Of a stretch of 32,000 nt of DNA, positions 1 to 21,313 are shown in pieces. The notes under the pieces were generated by a model that ran no database searches, was not told the DNA's origin, and saw only the letters and a list, made by a program, of their open reading frames with translations. A program made the position numbers and the translations under genes. How positions within the stretch are numbered: the first letter of the stretch is position 1; each line of letters starts with the position of its first letter. Origin of the DNA: Candidatus Iainarchaeum sp. (GTDB lineage Archaea > Iainarchaeota > Iainarchaeia > Iainarchaeales > 0-14-0-20-30-16); assembly GCA_028710695.1 (NCBI GenBank), contig JAQTTP010000004.1, forward strand, positions 30,001 through 62,000, read 5' to 3'.

Positions 1-2
1 TA

Positions 3-2435
3 ACTAAGAACGATGTTTTAGACACAACAGGCCACGCAGTTCTAGTAAATGGAATTGTAGTTGGTGAAACAGCTCACGTTAGCGATGTTTTAGCTGCAAA
101 CAAATTGTCAACTGAGGTTGCAAAGTTAGCAGTATACACAACTGGCGGAGAAGTAGTACCTGGGGCAGAAACTTGTGTTGATGCAACAGGAACCGTAGAT
201 GACGGCCTAACAGTTAAGAAGAAATTCGTTGGAACTGCTTTAGGAGAAACAAAAGGATCAGATAACTTTGCTGCTGCAGATGTTATTGCAAAAGGTGCAA
301 ATGTTGGAACTGACCTTTTGGCAGATGAAAGTTCAGCAAGCTATAAAGTTGGTGGAACAACATATACATCTTCAATTAGAGAACAAGTAGCTCTTGGTGC
401 TCAAGCATTATTTGATGACAGATATTATGTTGGAGACATGGGCTTAGCTTATGATGCAGAAGACTTTGTATACACAGTGACTTTTGGAGATTTGAACTTT
501 GCTAAAGATACTGCAACAGGCGGATATACAAGCCCATCATGGACAGATGGAACTAATGATAAGGTAGTTATTCCTTTTTTAGGATCAACTTATATGGTGT
601 ATAGTATTAACGATAGTTCAGACCAGATAGTATTAGTAAACGAAAGTTCAGTAAAATCCTATGCTCCTGGTGCAAAGTTAGAAAACTTAGTTGGTAAAGA
701 TGGTAAAGCATATTATGCCACAATAGATGGTGTAGTATATAGTTCTACAGACCCAACTACAGTAAAGATGACTTTGTATAACGCAGAAACTGGCGTTGCA
801 GAGACAGAGAGTACAAAAGTAGCTGAAGGAGAAACTTTTGCAGAAGATTTATTAGATACTGGTGTAGATGTTCACCAAGTTGATAACATAGGTACTTCTG
901 ATGTTCCTGCCTACGATATACAAATATTGTTGGGTGAAGACAAATTAACAATAAAGAACAACGAAGGATTCCCATATGATTCAACAAAAACAAAAACAAA
1001 TACACAGTATGACTGGAAATCAACAATAAGTTTAACTGGTGGTAAATTAACAAATATAGTAATAAAGAACACTGCCAAAAATGATAAAACTTACACAGAA
1101 AAAAGTATGTTAAACGCTGGAGAAACAGCATGGTTATACGGTGACTTTATTGGTGTAAGATTTAGCGGACTAGAATTGCCAGATTATAGTTCATATGTAT
1201 CTACAACTAAAGAAACAACAACAATAGAATTTACTGATGCATTAGAAAACTCAGATAATATGCCTGGTATAAAATACTATGGTACTGATGATGCATTACA
1301 CGAGCTTCCATTCTATTATCAGTTAACTTTGAGTGCTGCAGATGATACTAACCTAGCTGCAACATTTACTATGGATGGCCAAGACAAGATTCTAAAAATA
1401 GTTGCAGAAGCAGATGGTAACTATAGTGTGTACACTGGTACTGGTAGCGATGTTGATGGAGAATATACAATAAAAATAACTGGTGCAACAGACTGGAAAT
1501 ATACTGCAGATGGAGATATTGATATCAATAGTCCATTAGCATTTACAAATAGTGGAGATATAAGCCAATATTATATCTTTGGTTATGACGCTACAAATAG
1601 TGTTGGATGGTTATTCCTGGGGGCAGATGTTCCTTATAACTTGAAGAGTTCAGCAGCATCTTATGGATCATTTGAGTTAGAAGGGTCTGATCAAGCAGTA
1701 GCATCTTCAACAGTAGCTGATGACTTTAACTTCTATTTACCTCACTTAGAAGGAGAAATAGATTCTTTGACATCAATAGCTGCATACACAGATAACCAAA
1801 TTTCAGCTGCTTACTTTAAAGTAGATCAAGATGCAGCAACAGCTAACTCTGGTGAATTTGCGGTGTATATAAACACAGAAACTGGAAAAGCACCATTAGT
1901 TGGTGAAGGTGGATCAACTAATGATATACCAACTGGATCACAAATCAACTATAGTAGTTCAACAACCTTGATAAAGGCCGGTAAAGATACTGGAATAAGC
2001 TGGGCATACAATGCATTCGGAACAAAGTTCGGTGTTGAAAGCGACTTCCCATTCTTTGTAATACCTGAAGCACAAGCATACCCTGAAGTACACATTGTGA
2101 CTGGAACTGCAACAGTAAATGCTGAAGGTCAAGTATGTACTACTGGTCCTGAAACAACAACTCCAAGTGTTGATACTCCATACACTAATGCTACATTACC
2201 TGTAATAGAAGCAGATAAAGCAGGAACAGGTAAATACATAGTAATTGGTGGATGGGCTGTTAATAGTTTGTTCCCTGAAGAATTAACTGCAAACTTAGTT
2301 AAGGAAGGAGACAAAGTATTAGAGACAGTTGCTGGTAACGTAATAGCTGCTGGTTTCACAAAGGAAAACACAGTTGCAGTTGTTGACGAGCTAATTGCTT
2401 TGTTAACTGCTGATGACGTAGTAGTTCCATTGTAA
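3..2435 (+). CDS. S-layer-like surface protein (5' partial; continues upstream of window)
   Basis: This frame is open from the window edge, so the TTG at 105 is only the ORF caller's first start. The N-terminal stretch LVNGIVVGETAHVSDVLAANKL and the C-terminal KYIVIGGWAVNSLFPEELTANL...VVDELIALL resemble the conserved end domains of archaeal S-layer proteins (from memory). The protein is Thr/Ser/Asp/Gly-rich with only two Cys and many N-x-S/T sequons. A hairpin plus oligo-T follows. Confidence 0.65.
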   Translation, partial: TKNDVLDTTGHAVLVNGIVVGETAHVSDVLAANKLSTEVAKLAVYTTGGEVVPGAETCVDATGTVDDGLTVKKKFVGTALGETKGSDNFAAADVIAKGANVGTDLLADESSASYKVGGTTYTSSIREQVALGAQALFDDRYYVGDMGLAYDAEDFVYTVTFGDLNFAKDTATGGYTSPSWTDGTNDKVVIPFLGSTYMVYSINDSSDQIVLVNESSVKSYAPGAKLENLVGKDGKAYYATIDGVVYSSTDPTTVKMTLYNAETGVAETESTKVAEGETFAEDLLDTGVDVHQVDNIGTSDVPAYDIQILLGEDKLTIKNNEGFPYDSTKTKTNTQYDWKSTISLTGGKLTNIVIKNTAKNDKTYTEKSMLNAGETAWLYGDFIGVRFSGLELPDYSSYVSTTKETTTIEFTDALENSDNMPGIKYYGTDDALHELPFYYQLTLSAADDTNLAATFTMDGQDKILKIVAEADGNYSVYTGTGSDVDGEYTIKITGATDWKYTADGDIDINSPLAFTNSGDISQYYIFGYDATNSVGWLFLGADVPYNLKSSAASYGSFELEGSDQAVASSTVADDFNFYLPHLEGEIDSLTSIAAYTDNQISAAYFKVDQDAATANSGEFAVYINTETGKAPLVGEGGSTNDIPTGSQINYSSSTTLIKAGKDTGISWAYNAFGTKFGVESDFPFFVIPEAQAYPEVHIVTGTATVNAEGQVCTTGPETTTPSVDTPYTNATLPVIEADKAGTGKYIVIGGWAVNSLFPEELTANLVKEGDKVLETVAGNVIAAGFTKENTVAVVDELIALLTADDVVVPL

Positions 2436-2809: not shown

Positions 2810-5800
2810 ATGAATAAAAATAGTGTTGGACGAAGTAAATTGAAAAATTTGTTTTTAAGTTTTTTTGTTTTGTTTTTTGTGGTGTTATGCGCAGGCTTTG
2901 TAAGTGCTGCAATAACAAGCATAACAGTAACAGATCCAGATGGTGGTGAATACTGGAGCGGTGACAGGAATATTACCTGGACTGCAGTAGGATGTGCTAC
3001 TGATCTAAACGTTAATATTTATTGGCAGGATGTATCTTTGGGCAATTCAACACAAATTGCTGTGGATGTAAACTGTGAATTACAATATTATCAATGGGAT
3101 ACAACCTCCGTAGCGAATGATACAGATTATAAAATAAAAATTCGTGCATCTGCTGATTCTGAGACTTATGATATTTCAAATGCTGTTTTTATAATTGATA
3201 ACACCGTTCCAACATTAACCCCTGTGACTATTGCTTCCGGTGATAGCAATACTTCTTCAGCAAAAGTAGGTAGTACAATAACATTATCTTTTACTGCAAG
3301 TGAAACATTGTCTGTTTTACCTACAGTAACAATAGCAACACATAGTGTGGTTGCAACAAATACTGGTGGATTAAATTATACAGCAACATATGCTATGGTT
3401 ACTGGTGATTCAACTGGGCTGGTGCCATTTACAATAGATTTTAATGATTTGGCAGGAAATGATGGTGTTCAGGTAGCTGCAACAACTAACTCTAGTTATG
3501 TTATTTTTGATAAAACTGCGCCTACTGTATCTGACGTAAATTCTACTAATACAGATAATAATTACAAGGTGGGCGATGATATTAATATTACAGTTGAGTT
3601 TAGTGAGGCCGTAATTGTAACTGGTACACCATTGATTTTCTTAGAATTGGGTGCAACCGATAGAAATGCAACTTATGAAAGTGGAACCGGTACAACTACT
3701 TTGACTTTTACTTATACAGTACAAGCAGGCGACACAAGTGCTGATTTAGATTATAATGGCACTGGCGCTTTAATTTTGAATAGTGGAACTATAGCTGATG
3801 CTGCCGGTAACACTGCAACTTTAACTTTAGCTGCCCCTGGTGCAGAGGGCTCTTTAGCACACGGTAAAGCAATAGTAATTGATACTACTGCTCCAATTAT
3901 AAGTGGTGTTTATTCTAATGCTACTGCGGCAGGTGTCTTAAAAATAGGTGACACAATAATATTTACTGTAGAAATTGATGTTGACGAAAATGGTTTGACA
4001 ATTCTTCCTGCGGGTTATAATGGTCATGCTTTTGTTCCTAGTTGGGCAAGTGATGATGGAAATTCTTACACAGCAACTTATACTGTTGTAGCTGGTGATG
4101 ACTTAGTTACAGCTTTACAGCTAACTGATGTAAACGCAGAGGATGCTACTGGTAATATTAGTGCTGATGTAAATGGTTCTGATGTAGCAAAAACAATTGA
4201 TGCAACATATCCAACTGTAAGTGATGTAAACTCTACAAAAGATGATGGTTCTTACAAAGCGGGTGTAGATATTAATATTACAGTTGGGTTTAGTGAAGCT
4301 GTAACTGTAACTGGTGCTCCTTTACTTGTTTTAGAATTGGGTGCAACCGACAGGAATGCAATTTATGCAAGTGGTTCTGGCACAACAACTTTAACCTTTA
4401 CTTACACTGTTGAGGCTGGCGACACCAGTAGTGATTTAGATTATAATGCTACTGATGGTTTAGATTTGAATAGTGGGACTATAAAAGATGCTGCAGGCAA
4501 TGCTGCAACTTTAACTTTAGCTGCTCCTGGTGCTGCAGGCTCATTAGCTGATGGTAAAGCAATAGTAATTGATACTACTGCTCCAACTGTATCTGACGTA
4601 AATTCTACTAATACAGATAATAATTACAAGGTGGGTGATGATATTAATATTACAGTTGAATTTACTGAGGCTGTAATTGTAACAGGTACTCCTTTGATTT
4701 ACTTAGAATTAGGTGCCACAGACAGAAATGCAAGTTATGTAAGTGGATCTGGTACAACAACTTTAACTTTTACTTATACAGTACAAACCGGTGATACCTC
4801 TGCAGATTTAGATTATAATGGTACTGGTGCTTTAATTTTGAATAGTGGAACTATAAACGATGCTGCATTGAATAATGCAACATTGACTTTGGCTACTCCT
4901 GGTGACGTAGGCTCTTTAGCACACGGTAAAGCAATAGTAATTGATACTACTGCTCCAATTATAAGTGGTGTTTATTCTAATGCTACTGCGGCAGGTGTCT
5001 TAAAAATAGGTGACACAATAATATTTACTGTAGAAATTGATGTTGACGAAAATGGTTTGACAATTCTTCCTGCGGGTTATAATGGTCATGCTTTTGTTCC
5101 TAGTTGGGCAAGTGATGATGGAAATTCTTACACAGCAACTTATACTGTTGTAGCTGGTGATGACTTAGTTACAGCTTTACAGCTAACTGATGTAAACGCA
5201 GAGGATGCTACTGGTAATATTAGTGCTGATGTAAATGGTTCTGATGTAGCAAAAACAATTGATGCAACATATCCAACTGTAAGTGATGTAAACTCTACAA
5301 AAGATGATGGTTCTTACAAAGCGGGTGTAGATATTAATATTACAGTTGGGTTTAGTGAAGCTGTAACTGTAACTGGTGCTCCTTTACTTGTTTTAGAATT
5401 GGGTGCAACCGACAGGAATGCAATTTATGCAAGTGGTTCTGGCACAACAACTTTAACCTTTACTTACACTGTTGAGGCTGGCGACACCAGTAGTGATTTA
5501 GATTATAATGCTACTGATGGTTTAGATTTGAATAGTGGGACTATAAAAGATGCTGCAGGCAATGCTGCAACTTTAACTTTAGCTGCTCCTGGTGCTGCAG
5601 GCTCATTAGCTGATGGTAAAGCAATAGTAATTGATACTACTGCTCCAACTGTATCTAATGTAACATCTACAAAAGATAATGGTACTTACAAAGCAGGTAC
5701 GGATCTTAACATTACTGTAACTTTTACTCAAGCAGTAACTGTAACTGGCACACCAATTTTAACCTTAAATACTGGTGATATAAATAGAAATGCGCAATAC

Positions 5801-8242
5801 CTTACTGGATCTGGCACAACAACTTTAACTTTTACTTACACTGTCCAAGCCGGTGATACATCCTTAGATTTAGATTATAATGGCACAGATGCTTTAGATT
5901 TGAATAGCGGAACTATAACTGATGCTGCTTTGAATAACGCAACTTTGACATTGGCTACTCCAGGTGCTGCTGGTTCATTAGGTGCCAATAAAGCTTTAGT
6001 AATTGATACTACTGCTCCGATTATTAGTTCAGTAACTTCTAATGCTACTGAAGCAGGTGTTTTGAAGATTGGTGACACAATAATATTTACTGCTGATATA
6101 AGTGTAACTGAAGCAGGTTTAACTCTCCTTCCAACAACTTATAATGGTCAAGTAATAGCATGGGGTACTGTTAATGGTGGAGATACTTACACAGCAACCT
6201 ATACTGTTATAGCTGGTGATGATACTGCAGTAGCTATTCAGTTGACTGATGTAAATGCAACTGATGCTGTAGGTAACATAAGTGCAAATGTAAGCGGCTC
6301 AGATGTAGCTAAGACAATTGATGCAACTAGACCTACTGTACTTGATGTGAACTCAACTAAGGCAGATGGTTATTACAAGGCGGGTGTAGATATTAATATT
6401 ACAGTTGGGTTTAGTGAAGATGTAAATATAACTGGTGCACCATTAATTGTTTTAGAATTAGGTGCTACTGATAGAAATGCGATTTATGTTGATGGTAATG
6501 GTACTGATACCTTAACATTTACTTATACTGTTCAGGCAGGCGATACATCTTTAGATTTAGATTATAACGCTACTGATGGTTTAGATTTGAATGGTGGAAC
6601 TATAACTGATTCAACTGCTGGTAACGCTGCAACTTTGACATTAGCTGCTCCTGGTGCTGCAGGTTCATTAGCCAATGGTAAGGCAATAGTAATTGATACT
6701 ACTGCTCCAACTGTAACTGGTGTTACTCCAGTAACTTTGGCAGATGCGAGTGTAGGAACAGTTGATGTAAATATAACATTCTCAGAAACAATGGATGAGG
6801 CTACTTTAGGAACTATGACTGTGGAAGGTTTAAATGATAGTCCAATAACTATAACTAACAGTTCTTGGGCGAATAGCTCGACTATTTGGCAAGGAACATT
6901 TACCTTTACAGATGATAATGAGGTTGTAACTGATGCATTTTATGGAATATTAGGTGCAAAAGATTTAGCAGGTAATGTAATGAGTACCTTAAGTACAAGA
7001 GGAGAAAATAACGATTTAAATGCAGATACTAACAATCCGACAGTAGCAATAACAATGAGTGATTATGCTTTGAAAGCTGGAGAAACAGCAACAGTAACAT
7101 TTACATTCTCAGAAGCTCCAACTGGATTTGCAGTGGGGGATATAAACTCTCCTAGTGGAGCGATTTCAGGGTTATCTGGAACTACAGTATATACTGCAAC
7201 ATTTACTCCAACTGTAAGTACAACGGATGCAACAAATGTAATCACTGTTGGTACTGACTGGACAGATGCAGCAGGTAATGCTCCTGGCGTATCAACTACA
7301 TCAAGTAATTATGCAGTAGATACTTTATTACCAACAGTTTCTTCTGCGACAGCAGATTCAGATCCGGCAACAGCAGGAGTAATTACAATTACTGTAATAT
7401 TTAGTGAGACAATAGATACTGGAACAAGTCCAACAGTAAGAGTTACTGGTTTGGCTACAAATCCATATTCAGTAACAGAAACAGATTTCAATTCAACAAC
7501 TTGGACTGGAACATTTACTTTGTTAAATAATGATGAGAATGCAACTGCAACAATAACAGTATCCGGGGCAAAAGATGTTGCAGGTAACACAATGACTGCA
7601 AATAATAGTGCAGGAACATTTACTGCTGACACTATTGCTCCAGTAGTAAGTAGTGTTTCCTTTGATAAAGCAACTTACAGGATTACTCCAGATGTAAATG
7701 TAACAGTGACTGTAGTTGAAGACACCACAGCAGCAACAATAACTGTTAATGGTAGTGGTGCAACAGAGGGTGTTAATGGAACTTGGACATATACATTTGC
7801 ACATGGAAAAGCAGTAGTTGGAACATATAGTTTGTTAATAACTGCTACTGATGCCGCAGGAAATAGTAAACAATCTCTTGCTTACTATAATGTCTCTGCT
7901 GCAGATACAACTGGTGATTATAACTATACCCAGAGCTTAAATGTAAACTGGAATACATTGTGGTTACCTCCAAATATAAGTGCTTTAAATGATAGCAACA
8001 CCTCGGTTGCAGGTGTTGTTGGTTATAAGTCTGGAGACCACGGTTATGATAACCACTGGGAATCTGGTGGAGCTTTATGGACAATACTGTATCACTATGA
8101 TTCAGATTCTGCAGAATGGCTTGTTCAGTACCAGGGTGGCGAATCAGAAGGAACTGGGACTTTAACTGATATGAATTCAGATTTACAAAGTCCATATTGG
8201 ATTTACCTGAGTTCTGCTGATAGATTCCAGCTTGATAACTAA
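2810..8242 (+). CDS. Giant secreted surface protein/adhesin (1810 aa) made of tandem Ig-like beta-sandwich repeats
   Basis: GGAGGG lies 8 nt upstream of the ATG. The N-terminal signal peptide is KLKNLFLSFFVLFFVVLCAGFVSA|A. It is followed by a GEYW...ITW...YKIKI domain and then about 118-aa repeats with the motif TLTFTYTVxAGDTSxDLDY...LNxGTIxDAAGNxATLTL...AIVIDTTAP. A second repeat class (VNITFSETMD..., ATVTFTFSEAP...) and a unique W/Y-rich C-terminal domain follow. N-x-S/T sequons are dense and there is no C-terminal TM segment. Confidence 0.9.
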   Translation: MNKNSVGRSKLKNLFLSFFVLFFVVLCAGFVSAAITSITVTDPDGGEYWSGDRNITWTAVGCATDLNVNIYWQDVSLGNSTQIAVDVNCELQYYQWDTTSVANDTDYKIKIRASADSETYDISNAVFIIDNTVPTLTPVTIASGDSNTSSAKVGSTITLSFTASETLSVLPTVTIATHSVVATNTGGLNYTATYAMVTGDSTGLVPFTIDFNDLAGNDGVQVAATTNSSYVIFDKTAPTVSDVNSTNTDNNYKVGDDINITVEFSEAVIVTGTPLIFLELGATDRNATYESGTGTTTLTFTYTVQAGDTSADLDYNGTGALILNSGTIADAAGNTATLTLAAPGAEGSLAHGKAIVIDTTAPIISGVYSNATAAGVLKIGDTIIFTVEIDVDENGLTILPAGYNGHAFVPSWASDDGNSYTATYTVVAGDDLVTALQLTDVNAEDATGNISADVNGSDVAKTIDATYPTVSDVNSTKDDGSYKAGVDINITVGFSEAVTVTGAPLLVLELGATDRNAIYASGSGTTTLTFTYTVEAGDTSSDLDYNATDGLDLNSGTIKDAAGNAATLTLAAPGAAGSLADGKAIVIDTTAPTVSDVNSTNTDNNYKVGDDINITVEFTEAVIVTGTPLIYLELGATDRNASYVSGSGTTTLTFTYTVQTGDTSADLDYNGTGALILNSGTINDAALNNATLTLATPGDVGSLAHGKAIVIDTTAPIISGVYSNATAAGVLKIGDTIIFTVEIDVDENGLTILPAGYNGHAFVPSWASDDGNSYTATYTVVAGDDLVTALQLTDVNAEDATGNISADVNGSDVAKTIDATYPTVSDVNSTKDDGSYKAGVDINITVGFSEAVTVTGAPLLVLELGATDRNAIYASGSGTTTLTFTYTVEAGDTSSDLDYNATDGLDLNSGTIKDAAGNAATLTLAAPGAAGSLADGKAIVIDTTAPTVSNVTSTKDNGTYKAGTDLNITVTFTQAVTVTGTPILTLNTGDINRNAQYLTGSGTTTLTFTYTVQAGDTSLDLDYNGTDALDLNSGTITDAALNNATLTLATPGAAGSLGANKALVIDTTAPIISSVTSNATEAGVLKIGDTIIFTADISVTEAGLTLLPTTYNGQVIAWGTVNGGDTYTATYTVIAGDDTAVAIQLTDVNATDAVGNISANVSGSDVAKTIDATRPTVLDVNSTKADGYYKAGVDINITVGFSEDVNITGAPLIVLELGATDRNAIYVDGNGTDTLTFTYTVQAGDTSLDLDYNATDGLDLNGGTITDSTAGNAATLTLAAPGAAGSLANGKAIVIDTTAPTVTGVTPVTLADASVGTVDVNITFSETMDEATLGTMTVEGLNDSPITITNSSWANSSTIWQGTFTFTDDNEVVTDAFYGILGAKDLAGNVMSTLSTRGENNDLNADTNNPTVAITMSDYALKAGETATVTFTFSEAPTGFAVGDINSPSGAISGLSGTTVYTATFTPTVSTTDATNVITVGTDWTDAAGNAPGVSTTSSNYAVDTLLPTVSSATADSDPATAGVITITVIFSETIDTGTSPTVRVTGLATNPYSVTETDFNSTTWTGTFTLLNNDENATATITVSGAKDVAGNTMTANNSAGTFTADTIAPVVSSVSFDKATYRITPDVNVTVTVVEDTTAATITVNGSGATEGVNGTWTYTFAHGKAVVGTYSLLITATDAAGNSKQSLAYYNVSAADTTGDYNYTQSLNVNWNTLWLPPNISALNDSNTSVAGVVGYKSGDHGYDNHWESGGALWTILYHYDSDSAEWLVQYQGGESEGTGTLTDMNSDLQSPYWIYLSSADRFQLDN
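3848..4594 (+). repeat. Perfect 747-bp direct repeat, copy 1
   Basis: Compared line by line with 4910-5656. I found no mismatch, and the offset is exactly 1062 bp. Confidence 0.85.
4910..5656 (+). repeat. Perfect 747-bp direct repeat, copy 2
   Basis: Identical to 3848-4594 by eye. Identity stops sharply on both sides. Confidence 0.85.
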
Positions 8243-8305: not shown

Positions 8306-9385
8306 ATGAAACGGTATTTAAGCGCACTAATTTTTTTGATATTTTGCGTATCTTTTGTTTTTGCAACTCCTGGAGATTGGAAAGGAATTGTTGACATAAA
8401 CGGTTCAGAGCCAGAGGTGGGGACAACAGTATCAGCATATACTGGAAGTACATTGCTGGATAGTACAACTACTCCAACTACTTCTGCGGGTGCAACTGCG
8501 TATGATTCAAATGGTTTTTATATTCTTGTTTTTGAAACCACAATTGACGCAGCCCTTACATTTAAAGTTTGTGGAATAACTGCAGATACAAATACTTTTA
8601 GTGTTGGTACCCATGATTTAAATATTTCAGCAACTCTTCAAGCAAATGGGACTGCGGCTTGTACTTGTGATGGGATTTGTTCTGGAGGGCATTGTGTAAA
8701 CCCTGGAGCATCAGGAGTATGTTCGGCTAATACTTATTATTGTAATAGTAATGGTTCTTGTGAAACTGCATATGGTGAAACATCATCAAATTGTTCTGCT
8801 GATTGTTCATCAGGGGGTGGATCTGGTGGATCTGGTGGATCATCAACAATTATAATAGCAGAAACTACGGAAGAAGCAATAGAAATCGGTAGTGAGGAAA
8901 CAATAACAACAACAGTTTCAAGTGGTGGAAGTAGAACAATCAAAGTAAAGGATGAAGAACACACTGTAACTGTTGATGAAACAAATGTTGAAGAACAAAC
9001 AGCAAGAATAACTATTGCTTCAACTCCAATGACATACATATTGAAAACAGGTCAATCTGTAAAAGCAGACTTTGAGAACGATGGAGTATACGATCTAAAG
9101 GTAACTTTGGGTGGCGTAGATGCTTCTGGGGCTAAGCTGTATTTATTGCAGATTGCAGAACCAGTAGCTAAAGCAGCAGACACAACAAAAGAGCCTACTG
9201 GCGGAACAATAACTACTGAAGACAAAACAACTACCACAACTGATGATGGTAGTACAACAACAGATAACACAACTGGAACTACAGACACCGAAGAAACAAT
9301 AAGCAGTGCTTGGGTATGGTGGGTTCTAGGGGTAATAATTGTTTTAGTAGTTGTTTACCTAGGATATGCAATGATCAAGAAGTAA
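8306..9385 (+). CDS. Secreted, C-terminally membrane-anchored modular surface protein (359 aa)
   Basis: GAGGTG lies upstream of the ATG. Signal peptide: MKRYLSALIFLIFCVSFVFA|TP. The modules are a beta-rich N-domain, a Cys-rich module (CTCDGICSGGHCVNPG...CNSNGSCETAYGETSSNCSADC), a GGSGGSGGS linker, a second beta domain, a Thr-rich stalk (TTTTTDDGSTTTDNTTGTTDTEET) and a terminal TM helix plus KK (WVWWVLGVIIVLVVVYLGYAMIKK). Confidence 0.85.
   Translation: MKRYLSALIFLIFCVSFVFATPGDWKGIVDINGSEPEVGTTVSAYTGSTLLDSTTTPTTSAGATAYDSNGFYILVFETTIDAALTFKVCGITADTNTFSVGTHDLNISATLQANGTAACTCDGICSGGHCVNPGASGVCSANTYYCNSNGSCETAYGETSSNCSADCSSGGGSGGSGGSSTIIIAETTEEAIEIGSEETITTTVSSGGSRTIKVKDEEHTVTVDETNVEEQTARITIASTPMTYILKTGQSVKADFENDGVYDLKVTLGGVDASGAKLYLLQIAEPVAKAADTTKEPTGGTITTEDKTTTTTDDGSTTTDNTTGTTDTEETISSAWVWWVLGVIIVLVVVYLGYAMIKK
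8816..8842 (+). repeat. 3 x 9-bp microsatellite (ggtggatct ggtggatct ggtggatca) encoding the GGS linker
   Basis: Read directly from the sequence. It is in frame and encodes GGSGGSGGS. Confidence 0.9.
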
Positions 9386-10304: not shown

Positions 10305-10568
10305 TCAGTAAATATTATCGTGGTGCTCATAATCTAAAAGTCGAACAACTTTTGTATTTTCATCTATTTCGTAAGTAAGGACAAATGATTTACAAATATG
10401 TACTCGACGAGTACCGTGCATATCGCCTTTAAGTGGTTTGTAATGATTTGGTGCCTCTAATATTTCATCTACTTTTTTACGAATTATTTTTAGTTGCTTT
10501 TTGTCTTTTTTTGCTAGCTTTGAAAAAACTTTATCTAAGTGTTCAGGTATTTCTAAAGCATATGTCAT
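10305..10568 (-). CDS. relE: Type II toxin, RelE/ParE superfamily mRNA interferase
   Basis: 87 aa. The pattern KLAKKDKKQLKIIRKKVDEILEAP.HYKPLKGDMHGTRRVHI.KSFVLTYEIDE..KVVRLLDYEHHDNIY is the typical RelE/StbE layout. The start lies 2 nt after the stop of the upstream small ORF. Confidence 0.75.
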   Translation of the reverse strand: MTYALEIPEHLDKVFSKLAKKDKKQLKIIRKKVDEILEAPNHYKPLKGDMHGTRRVHICKSFVLTYEIDENTKVVRLLDYEHHDNIY

Positions 10569-10570
10569 AG

Positions 10571-10792
10571 TTATAACCCATACCTTTTAGCAAAATTATC
10601 AACTTTTATAAATTTGCCTTGCCTAATTCTTTCTAATTTTTGAATATATTCTTGTTTTACTTCTGGTTCGTTTTCTATTATGGATCGCATAAAAAACTCT
10701 ATTTGTTTACTCATACTCATTCCATTGCTTTTACAAAAATCAGAAAATCTCTTGTATACTGTTTCTTCAACATTAAACGTCTTTAAAGTCAT
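10571..10792 (-). CDS. Ribbon-helix-helix type antitoxin (73 aa)
   Basis: The N-terminal beta-strand plus helices (LKTFNVEETVYKRFSDFCKSNGMSMSKQIEFFMRSII) fit the RHH/CopG antitoxin pattern, and it is translationally coupled to relE. The ORF-track start at 10801 is a GTG inside the SD-like GTGATA, so I chose the ATG at 10792. Confidence 0.65.
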   Translation of the reverse strand: MTLKTFNVEETVYKRFSDFCKSNGMSMSKQIEFFMRSIIENEPEVKQEYIQKLERIRQGKFIKVDNFAKRYGL

Positions 10793-19239: not shown

Positions 19240-20034
19240 TTATTTTTTGGGTGTGGGATTTAAATGTGTGTGTACAAAGAATCTTCCTGCGAAAAATAGT
19301 ATCTCTCTTATTGTTTTTGGATTTAAATTATATCTTAAAGTTAAATCCACGGTTTTGTTAATGACCTTCCTAGGGTATAACTTTTGCTTTCCAATCGCTT
19401 GGCCACCAACAAAATTTAAATGTTCAAAACTTGTATTATGTTCTTTAAATGCAGATTCTAGCCTTCTTTTTGTAAGCCCGAAATCAACGAAATCAATCAT
19501 AATTATTTTTTTTGGCTTTGTAGACGCATATATTTTGCCTGCTTGTTTAATAAGGGCCTGCTTCTCCTGTATTGCTGGTAGGCCACGCAGATCACTTGGT
19601 GCGGCAGCAGCGGGGGTTATTATTGTTGTTGCGGAAATATTTGTCACTCCTTGCTTTCTTAATTCTTCAATAAGCCCACGCATGAAGTAAAATGTAAATA
19701 ACTGCCCAGTTAGTGGAAATAAGAATAAAGTTTTTTCTTTGGATTGTATTGCGGACGTTATGACAGTTTCTAAACCAGATTTGTGGGTATTTTCAGGCTG
19801 TGGGTTATATTTTTGGCCTAATAAAGACTTTATTTGTTCATTATATTCTACACCGTATCTTTTCTTGAAAAACTCTTCTGCCTTTTCTGTTGTAATTTCC
19901 TGTCTTTTCTTTAGTCCTGCCCTTTCAAGCTCTCTTCTTCGTTCTCTTAAGAATGCCTTTCTGTTTTGTCTTGCACCCAACTCTCCGTCTTTTAATTTTC
20001 TGTATTCTGCTTTGAATTTTGGAAGTTCTGGCAT
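19240..20034 (-). CDS. Hypothetical protein: Arg/Lys/Glu-rich helical N-terminus plus a domain with a weak phosphoribosyltransferase-like motif
   Basis: 264 aa from the ATG at 20034 (the GTG at 20043 lies in the SD-like GTGATT). KKIIMIDFVDFGLTKRRL loosely resembles the PRPP-binding loop (hydrophobic x4-D/E-D-x-x-x-T-G-x-T). The match is imperfect and made by eye only. Confidence 0.5.
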   Translation of the reverse strand: MPELPKFKAEYRKLKDGELGARQNRKAFLRERRRELERAGLKKRQEITTEKAEEFFKKRYGVEYNEQIKSLLGQKYNPQPENTHKSGLETVITSAIQSKEKTLFLFPLTGQLFTFYFMRGLIEELRKQGVTNISATTIITPAAAAPSDLRGLPAIQEKQALIKQAGKIYASTKPKKIIMIDFVDFGLTKRRLESAFKEHNTSFEHLNFVGGQAIGKQKLYPRKVINKTVDLTLRYNLNPKTIREILFFAGRFFVHTHLNPTPKK

Positions 20035-20052
20035 GATAATCACTATGTGAGC

Positions 20053-20667
20053 TTACCAAAGCCCAGTTACAACTAATACAATTCCTGCTGCTAGGCTGAT
20101 GATGTGTAATAGTAAATAATCAAGAGTTGTTGTGCTGCCTAGAAGAATGAACTTAGCAATTACTATTAAGATCAGCAGAATTCCTAAGCCCAAAATGACT
20201 TTTTTGAATATTGCCATCTTTCCTGTTCCTGGAGAGAAATGTTCTATCTTGTAATCTAAAGTATTAATGTCCTTTTTCTGGAGATCAACTTTCTGTTTCA
20301 TATCATTTACAATATCTGAAACAGTCTCTGATTTCTTGTTTATGTTCTGCTCGAACTTGTCCTGTTTTCTTGCTGTCTCTTTTACAAACTCATCTGTTTC
20401 TGTAGCAATTAAAGTTTTGTTCTTTTCCATTATGTCTTCAAGAATTTTCTTTTCGATCTCTGATTCTTTTTCTTCTAAATAATTGATAGTTTCTTTTTTT
20501 GTTTCTGATAAAATTAAGTCGAAAGTATTGGCTTCTGACATGAGCAGAAGATTCTTTATTTGGGCTTCATCAACACCCAAAGACTTTAAAGTTTCAACAA
20601 TCTTCTCTTCGCTTTCTCCTTTGCTTAACATATCTTTTATTGTCTTAATAATATTTGGCTCTACCAT
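20053..20667 (-). CDS. Hypothetical tail-anchored coiled-coil membrane protein
   Basis: GAGGGA lies upstream of the ATG. The protein has a small helical N-domain (IKTIKDMLSKGESEEKIVETLKSLGVDEAQIKNLL), a long charged heptad-like region and two C-terminal TM helices (AIFKKVILGLGILLILIVIAKFILL, LLLHIISLAAGIVLVVTGLW). Confidence 0.6.
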   Translation of the reverse strand: MVEPNIIKTIKDMLSKGESEEKIVETLKSLGVDEAQIKNLLLMSEANTFDLILSETKKETINYLEEKESEIEKKILEDIMEKNKTLIATETDEFVKETARKQDKFEQNINKKSETVSDIVNDMKQKVDLQKKDINTLDYKIEHFSPGTGKMAIFKKVILGLGILLILIVIAKFILLGSTTTLDYLLLHIISLAAGIVLVVTGLW

Positions 20668-20677
20668 ACATATCCCT

Positions 20678-21313
20678 CTAGCTTACCTTCAAATCAAAAT
20701 TTATTTCTTCGTCAATGTTATTTGCTTCATTAAAAATATGGAAAAATATTTTATTTGTTCCTTGTAATTTTGGAATAATTATAAAAGAAAAATCTTCACA
20801 TTTGTCTTTTTCAATGATCTTTGTTTTTTCTGTGTCATTTATTTCAAATCCCTCATTTTTATAAACTTCTGTAGTTAGTCCTATATCGTCACCAGTATTG
20901 CAAATTGAAAGCATTATCTCTGTAGAAATATCTTTCTTTAGCTCTTTGTAACTTATGTTGAAATTAAGATAATTAAATCCTTTGAAATCCTTTAGATCTA
21001 CCTCTTTGTAGAATTTTTGGACTCCTGCTGCATTTACTTCCAAAATGTTTTTTCCTTTTGCAAGGGTTATATTAACTGTTTTTTGTTCTCCTGGGTTTAA
21101 ACTAAAATTTTCTCCTTTTTCACCATTGAGAGTTACAAAGATGTTTGTTATAATGTGGTTTTGAGTATTAGTCATCTTTAGTTCTAAGCTATCTTCTTTA
21201 AGCTCTGCTTTAACGTCTAGATCTTTGTTTATGAATAATAAAACTAAGACAGAAACAAGTACAAGAATTAAAAAAATTAAAAGAGCACCTTGAAGTATTT
21301 TCTTTGAAAACAT
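20678..21313 (-). CDS. Hypothetical signal-anchored beta-rich protein
   Basis: N-terminal TM segment ALLIFLILVLVSVLVLLFI, then two segments with beta-sandwich-like patterning (LNPGEQKTVNITLAKGKNILEV...). I recognise no family. Confidence 0.55.
   Translation of the reverse strand: MFSKKILQGALLIFLILVLVSVLVLLFINKDLDVKAELKEDSLELKMTNTQNHIITNIFVTLNGEKGENFSLNPGEQKTVNITLAKGKNILEVNAAGVQKFYKEVDLKDFKGFNYLNFNISYKELKKDISTEIMLSICNTGDDIGLTTEVYKNEGFEINDTEKTKIIEKDKCEDFSFIIIPKLQGTNKIFFHIFNEANNIDEEINFDLKVS

Follow-up and report, generated by a model that had tools for sequence, protein, structure and literature searches.

Introduction

Tandem repeats within a gene can evolve in concert, and gene conversion and unequal crossing-over between the repeats are the classical model for this process, with the alpha C/Rib and Lig repeats as bacterial examples. 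A related case is the Periscope Proteins of bacteria, which include SasG/Aap, Rib, Sgo_0707, Esp, and CdrA (Whelan et al., 2021, PNAS, PMC8201768). In these proteins, high DNA identity between repeats was proposed to enable intragenic recombination and, with it, changes in repeat number and stalk length, and long reads are needed to see this variation (PMC8201768). Archaea are nowhere mentioned in that paper. From DPANN archaea, MJ1_0160 of Nanobdella aerobiophila is known as an immunoglobulin-like (Ig-like), glycosylated protein of the surface or surface-layer (S-layer) type, and homogenization of repeats is not discussed in that work (bioRxiv 10.1101/2023.10.27.564410). Here, we describe a repeat-built gene for a predicted surface protein of 1810 aa in another DPANN archaeon, Candidatus Iainarchaeum sp. 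The gene occupies positions 2810-8242 (+) of a 32,000-nt stretch of contig JAQTTP010000004.1 (GCA_028710695.1). This stretch as a whole is called the window below, and all positions are counted from its first letter unless another contig is named. In the gene, a block of 747 bp occurs twice without a mismatch, in the midst of repeats that diverged long ago. We consider the block to be probably the footprint of recent intragenic homologous exchange between repeat units. Its strict zero divergence and the number of exactly two copies remain assembly-dependent.

An exact repeat of 747 bp

By direct base-by-base comparison, 3848-4594 and 4910-5656 (both +) are the same over 747 bp with 0 mismatches, and the match is maximal since extension by a single base fails at either edge. 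The spacing between the two copies is 1062 bp, or 354 codons. The block itself is 249 codons long, and its first base is the start of codon 347 in the open reading frame (ORF) 2810-8242. It is the sole long exact repeat within the window, where the runner-up measures 50 bp.

Outside the block, identity is lost at once. On the 5' side, 3515-3847 and 4577-4909 differ at 48 of 333 sites (14.4%). Third positions account for 32 of the 48, and the differences fall into 26 synonymous codons and 12 replacement codons, the latter including F/Y, E/V, A/N, and G/L. Upstream of 3507/4569, the two sequence contexts are unrelated (identity 0.26-0.40). On the 3' side, identity drops immediately to about 62% (4601-4750 vs. 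5663-5812). A preliminary description of this DNA, read by eye, had reported the perfect identity, the 1062-bp offset, the mostly synonymous third-position differences on one side, and the strong divergence on the other. The exact comparison bears out all of these, and a self exact-match search returned the same block boundaries. The same description called the gene giant; with 1810 aa it is large rather than giant.

The frame in which the block lies becomes visible when the stalk is split at the recurring TAPT/I motif (T-A/Y-P-T/I). This gives nine domains, A1 B1 A2, A3 B2 A4, and A5 B3 A6, that is, three A-B-A' super-units of 1062 bp each (all +). Super-unit 1 (3515-4576) consists of A1 (3515-3886), B1 (3887-4204), and A2 (4205-4576), and super-unit 2 (4577-5638) of A3 (4577-4948), B2 (4949-5266), and A4 (5267-5638). 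At the nucleotide level, B2 equals B1 and A4 equals A2 at 100%, and A3 is 87.1% identical to A1. Super-unit 3 (5639-6700) is composed of A5 (5639-6010), B3 (6011-6325), and A6 (6326-6700), B3 being one codon shorter and A6 one codon longer than their counterparts. Its nucleotide identity to the matching domains of the first two units is 70-75% for A5, 73.7% for B3, and 82.3% for A6. The third, older unit that had been suspected is indeed present, and as a unit it is 74-82% identical to the first two. All six A domains are 70-100% identical as DNA, and the neighbouring domains A2 and A3 share about 77% protein identity. On this map, copy 1 of the block starts with the final 39 nt of A1, runs through all of B1 and A2, and ends 18 nt into A3; copy 2 starts with the final 39 nt of A3, runs through all of B2 and A4, and ends 18 nt into A5.

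Inter-domain junctions at the block edges

At every domain boundary, the gene carries a nearly identical stretch of about 35-55 bp, which encodes …GSLAxGKAIVIDTTAP…. A 34-nt part of it (…GKAIVIDTTAP…) at 3863-3896 (+) has exact copies at 4553-4586, 4925-4958, and 5615-5648. Both ends of the block are found next to such copies: the left end (3848) is 15 nt upstream of the copy at 3863-3896, and the right end (4594) is 8 nt past the copy at 4553-4586. What super-units 1 and 2 have in common is therefore one complete B-A' cassette bounded by junctions. With 34-nt exact copies at four sites, the edges of the block sit in sequence similar enough for homologous pairing, and the junction is likely the site at which exchanges resolve.

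Age of the block and earlier exchange

The divergence that surrounds the block is old. Between the unconverted parts of A1 and A3, synonymous divergence (dS) is 0.53 and nonsynonymous divergence (dN) is 0.071. The ratio dN/dS of 0.13 agrees with the earlier view that these differences were shaped by purifying selection. Inside the block, about 70 synonymous differences are expected (185 synonymous sites, proportion of synonymous differences 0.38) and 0 are seen (P ~1e-38). Counting all sites, the probability of 747 consecutive identical sites at the divergence of the flank is ~1e-50. In the block, synonymous divergence does not exceed 0.016 (upper limit at 95%) vs. 0.53 in the flank, from which we infer that the block is younger than 3% of the age of the A1/A3 split. 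Selection that holds the block identical was considered and rejected: because synonymous sites are identical as well, selection at the protein level is no explanation.

The two block copies enclose an unconverted A3 core of 315 bp (4595-4909, +), which has a history of its own. The non-block segment of A3 (4577-4909) and the corresponding part of A1 have an identity of 85.6%, which proves to be unevenly distributed when the non-block segments of A1, A3, and A5 (333 nt each) are compared in a three-way mosaic test. The left 171 nt of A3 are 90.6% identical to A1 and 66% to A5, whereas the right 162 nt are 80% identical to A1 and 84% to A5. Informative sites split 48:6 on the left and 15:21 on the right, and the maximum chi-square breakpoint is placed near 4748 (permutation p = 2e-4). 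A3 is thus a significant mosaic of A1 and A5, which means that the array has exchanged sequence earlier.

Origin of the identical copies

In what follows, the array is written as X-R-Y-R-Z, with X, Y, and Z for the A cores and R for the 747-bp block. We favour homologous recombination between repeat units because a perfect block is set in old divergence shaped by purifying selection, because its edges are at the junctions, and because A3 carries the trace of an older exchange. Recombination between super-units 1 and 2 would begin and resolve inside two junctions. One whole B-A' cassette (747 bp) would be overwritten by the sequence of the other unit, and the intervening 315-bp A core would keep its old divergence. 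This may have happened by non-reciprocal gene conversion of one B-A' cassette by the other. An expansion by unequal crossover followed by a contraction, with all breakpoints in junctions, would have the same outcome. The two routes are indistinguishable from one sequence, and both are concerted evolution driven by homologous recombination. The mechanism and its recency are here deduced from the pattern of identity rather than shown. By analogy with the bacterial Periscope Proteins, such identity would leave the array prone to gain and loss of 354-aa units.

The preliminary description had named recent gene conversion or unequal crossing-over as the cause. Conversion or crossover between units is indeed the best supported origin, but a single unequal crossover cannot give X-R-Y-R-Z. 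In that case, the middle core should be a hybrid identical in parts to X and to Z, and Y is 9-34% diverged from both. Other candidates were tried and rejected. After plain tandem duplication, the units should be identical over their full 1062 bp. As for a donor cassette in other parts of the window, no further A or B copy is present as DNA in the 32 kb. Mutagenesis by a diversity-generating retroelement (DGR), which acts on a variable repeat (VR) from a template repeat (TR), does not match either: 12 of the 48 substitutions start from A, all 12 types of base change are present, and no ORF of the window has a reverse transcriptase domain.

Two identical cassettes around a divergent core would also be obtained in another way. 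The whole 1062 bp may have been duplicated in tandem very recently, and the A core of one copy may then have been replaced by conversion from a paralog at another place in the genome or by DGR-like hypermutation; DGRs do occur in DPANN archaea. We regard this course of events as extremely improbable. It takes two events and an unseen donor. The flank differences are mostly synonymous and of all base types, with the small share from A given above, and neither a reverse transcriptase nor a template repeat is found in the window. In addition, the A3 core and A5 have derived sites in common, an indication that the donor lay within this very gene.

Assembly of the repeat array

The sequence comes from a metagenome-assembled genome (MAG), and the preliminary description had offered an assembly artefact as the alternative to recombination. 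The bearing of the data on this alternative is mixed. In the Logan k=31 assembly of SRR22315508, there is a 16,329-bp contig (L002, SRR22315508_25822) which matches the window without a difference from 6686 on, throughout the 12.7 kb that were compared. The sample is identified by this match; the literature searched yielded no paper for the run accession. Position 6686 is the unitig start after the last junction repeat that is predicted by a k=31 de Bruijn graph of the window. In this graph, the 34-nt junction copies given above and the three copies of a 33-nt relative, at 4559-4591, 5621-5653, and 6683-6715 (+), are multi-copy unitigs. Since the Logan contig starts where the repeats end, the population sequence is independently confirmed and the repeat array is not independently resolved. 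To this extent, the suspicion of an artefact is justified: a k=31 assembly does break at the repeats. On the other side, the set of junctions in the contig, X→R, R→Y, Y→R, and R→Z, fits only with R on both sides of Y. Thus, if the junctions are supported by reads, R must flank Y on both sides, as R→Y and Y→R logically require two R copies around Y.

Another alternative is a chimeric misassembly. According to this explanation, a single B-A' cassette lies between A1 and A5 in the real genome, and Y stems from a co-occurring strain or a paralog and was joined via the repeat. Strain mixtures are common in metagenomes, and X and Y share an exact run of 50 bp (3524-3573 = 4586-4635) that may mislead a small-k graph. 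Nevertheless, such a chimera is highly improbable. In the contig, it is the tail of A2 that leads into Y, not the N-terminal domain, and the contexts upstream of 3507/4569 are unrelated, so that a strain variant of X could not create R→Y; N→X and R→Y have just 50 exact bases in common. Moreover, Y is intact and in frame, shows the dN/dS of 0.13, and fits exactly into the A-B-A' periodicity, and the 32-kb window has no further copy of A or B DNA.

The weightier alternative concerns degree rather than kind. At least two very similar B-A' cassettes may have been made exactly identical, or their number may have been fixed at two, by assembly or polishing. This is unlikely in our judgement, but it has to be reckoned with. 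An exact repeat of 747 bp exceeds any short-read k-mer, and the Logan contig begins exactly at the break that the k=31 graph predicts. Orthologous genes in assemblies from JGI are likewise cut within repeat regions. A near-perfect duplication in a bacterial homolog (P0004), which is the better-resolved case on a contig of 1.26 Mb, apparently keeps one mismatch in about 750 bp, that is, near-identity. The steps at the block edges argue in the other direction. Identity rises from 60-85% to 100% within a single base on each side, and bubble popping cannot collapse flanks that are 14-38% diverged, so that the contrast between block and flank is real. If assembly had this effect, homogenized repeats would still stand, and what would fall are the statements of zero divergence and of exactly three super-units.

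Several considerations thus weigh against taking the recent exchange at full strength. The Logan contig is the sole independent assembly found. Bubble popping in metagenome assembly can erase differences between near-identical copies, as can homogenization during polishing, so the true divergence between the block copies may be small instead of zero. In addition, assemblers usually pass through a simple loop as few times as they can, so Y-R units could number more than one. Finally, no allele of the same species was found in the collections searched (by exact look-up, by whole-protein scans of genome and metagenome contigs, and by the route via the neighbouring gene). Therefore, recency and change in copy number are unseen at the population level.

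The predicted surface protein

The protein product corresponds to MDD4983735.1 of NCBI, from the Candidatus Iainarchaeum sp. MAG (100% match to our P0001), and its contig is 89,101 bp long. It forms a protein cluster of one, and the closest other homolog among 5.8 billion proteins is 47% identical. Pfam domains over the cut-off are Big_12, Big_5, and Big_13. Big_5 (PF13205) scores 44.5 bits for the whole protein vs. a gathering cut-off of 23.6; among single domains, A2 alone reaches 24.4, and A1 alone reaches 22.7, slightly under the cut-off. Accordingly, the A domain of about 124 aa is a borderline Big_5 domain, and the B domain of about 106 aa is weakly Big_12-like. For A1-B1-A2, an AlphaFold2 model based on an alignment of 54 rows consists entirely of beta structure, in three beta-sandwich domains. 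Its mean predicted local distance difference test (pLDDT) score is 82, with 93-98 for A1, 57-78 for B, and 80-92 for A2. The best structural matches of the model in PDB are tandem Ig arrays, namely titin I65-I70, LILRB3, and intimin D00-D0. A sequence search of PDB with one super-unit gave no match.

The protein is predicted to be exported to the cell surface. At its N-terminus, it has a signal-peptide-like segment (MNKNSVGRSKLKNLFLSFFVLFFVVLCAGFVSA, 2810-2908, +), in which residues ~9-33 are the sole stretch with a Kyte-Doolittle mean above 1.6 and for which the cleavage site is putative. It also has 56 N-X-S/T sequons vs. 30 expected from composition. The prediction is based on these heuristics and on the Ig-like architecture, not on a dedicated signal-peptide predictor. 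Apart from the hydrophobic segment at the N-terminus, a hydropathy scan gave no transmembrane (TM) helix, and neither a C-terminal TM helix nor an anchor motif was detected in the protein. After the array, a non-repeated part (6701-8239, +) carries more Big_5, Big_12, and Big_13 domains and then a conserved terminal domain of about 135 aa (7823-8239, +) with the motif GDHGYDNHW. In orthologs with unrelated middle regions, this domain retains an identity of 52-53%, and it may be a conserved domain for attachment or assembly. The Pfam scan detected no adhesive domain or recognizable ligand-binding head, and neither terminal domain belongs to a Pfam family. Adhesin, the term used at first for this protein, is thus an assumption; an S-layer-type role, perhaps with a TM-anchored neighbour as partner, is equally possible.

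Homologs and orthologs

Domains of the A type are widespread, with about 1400 instances in 119 homologs. The B domain is less frequent but genuine: a profile search with B1/B3 retrieved 251 representative proteins, 29 of them at E<1e-30. In contrast to the profile search, a word-indexed protein search with B1 (3887-4204) returned no match, not even the source protein, which is apparently an artefact of the tool and not biology. Whole-protein scans of genome and metagenome contigs gave only distant relatives, 29-63% identical over parts.

Long perfect internal repeats are found in ~10-30% of the homologs examined. Among the 119 homologs, exact protein repeats of at least 50 aa occur in 34, of at least 100 aa in 12, and of at least 200 aa in three. 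In proteins that have the B domain, perfect repeats of 294 aa (P0128), 252 aa (P0196), and 200 aa (P0204) were found. The bacterial homolog P0004 (L004, 4570-6048) has its duplication of about 750 bp, two domains long, at an offset of 732 bp; exact runs of 345 and 386 bp make up this duplication, and its DNA also has 369-bp repeats that are 92-100% identical. A homolog from Woesearchaeota (L001, 3538-8377) has exact intragenic repeats of 302, 208, and 151 bp. Other members of the family thus show the phenomenon as well.

Orthologous loci were located via the conserved gene downstream, which has the homologs P0122 (73% identity) and P0123 (56% identity); all of these loci are from other species. 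Besides the C-terminal ~135 aa, the N-terminal domain is also conserved in one of them (38% in L009), and the middles are unrelated. The ortholog in L009 (4389-7562) has 1057 aa vs. 1810 aa and no A-B-A' array. The stalk is thus lineage-specific and plastic between species, which would fit a stalk of variable length but is no evidence of variation within a species. Another ortholog (L013, 3-1919) runs off the end of its contig. In assemblies from JGI that represent the same population, the breaks fall within the orthologs' own internal repeat. Such surface genes are systematically truncated in metagenome assemblies.

Genomic neighbourhood

Most genes around the locus are archaeal housekeeping genes, including aIF5B, aIF2-gamma, TrmB, ribosomal proteins, Spt4/5, FtsZ, and RNR, and the GC content is 34%. 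Directly downstream of the surface-protein gene, there is a gene for a protein of 359 aa (8306-9385, +), with a signal-like N-terminus, a Cys-rich region, a GGS run (a tandem repeat at 8816-8841), a Thr-rich stretch, and a C-terminal TM helix. This order is syntenic: in four other assemblies, homologs of the gene lie directly downstream of the orthologous surface gene. The 359-aa protein is possibly a membrane-anchored partner of the surface protein, and the pair may be an anchor and a canopy, as in SlaB/SlaA. Upstream, an ORF at 1-2435 (+), open from the window start and at least 776 aa long, matches no Pfam family and is not similar to the Ig-repeat protein. Together with the two genes that follow, it makes a run of three probable surface or secreted proteins.

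Further observations concern the rest of the window. A ParE-like toxin gene and a small partner ORF (~10305-10568 and 10571-10792, -) lie between the TrmB regulator and the gene for ribosomal protein L7Ae, according to Pfam marks in the annotation of the Logan contig. At 19240-21313 (-), three consecutive ORFs of 267, 204, and 211 aa have no Pfam match amid housekeeping genes.

Comparison with known systems

In its features, the protein resembles MJ1_0160 of N. aerobiophila: both are large exported proteins of DPANN archaea that are rich in N-glycosylation sequons, contain several Ig-like folds, and lack a TM helix at the C-terminus. Repeat proteins of the Big_5-like type from bacteria and other DPANN archaea (P0004, P0020, P0063, and L001) share the A-type domain, and many of them have perfect or near-perfect internal repeats. 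However, they are at most 47% identical to the surface protein, and most are without the B domain and the A-B-A' order.

Among the classes described so far, the Periscope Proteins come closest. Like them, the protein would be exported and has a central tandem array of folded, mostly Ig-like domains, with long stretches identical as DNA. Long and highly identical repeats of folded domains are present here as 249 aa, or 747 bp, that occur twice at 100%, with only two copies being identical. Neighbouring domains with ~77% protein identity (A2 and A3) also break the rule of low identity between adjacent domains. As for defined ends, the conserved N- and C-terminal domains together with the conserved TM-anchored neighbour gene suggest them. 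The differences are that the protein is archaeal, that identity extends to only two of the three units, that the repeat unit is a three-domain A-B-A' cassette and not a single domain, and that no LPXTG-type or other anchor and no recognizable ligand-binding head were found. Moreover, the trait that defines Periscope Proteins is variation in repeat number between strains, and the gene described here is known from a single allele. It is a doubtful idea that this is an archaeal counterpart, with which a DPANN episymbiont would lengthen or shorten a glycosylated Ig-like stalk by A-B-A' units of 354 residues, the recombination taking place at the junctions between domains. The length of the stalk could then tune the distance or contact to the host cell, and the TM-anchored neighbour might be the membrane anchor in the manner of SlaA/SlaB.

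If the copies are truly identical and the length of the array varies in populations, the recombination-driven strategy of variable-length surface proteins in bacterial pathogens would extend to DPANN archaea, whose cell surface mediates an obligate cell-to-cell lifestyle. The locus also illustrates that surface genes built of repeats are insufficiently resolved in MAGs: the assembly breaks here in two independent cases, and the orthologous genes, too, end prematurely at repeats of their own. Thus, lengths and copy numbers of such genes from short-read MAGs are not to be taken at face value.

The block also agrees with concerted evolution. Here, a single sequence is the basis, and it gives neither the direction from donor to recipient nor a rate. 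The run of identity is longer than the divergence of the flank predicts (0/747 vs. 14.4%), as in gene conversion. The finding raises no new question in this respect: exchange is a common kind of event in such genes, and the block is ordinary, a sharp-edged perfect patch with mosaic structure inside old, diverged paralogous repeats, in agreement with the concerted evolution established for repeat proteins.

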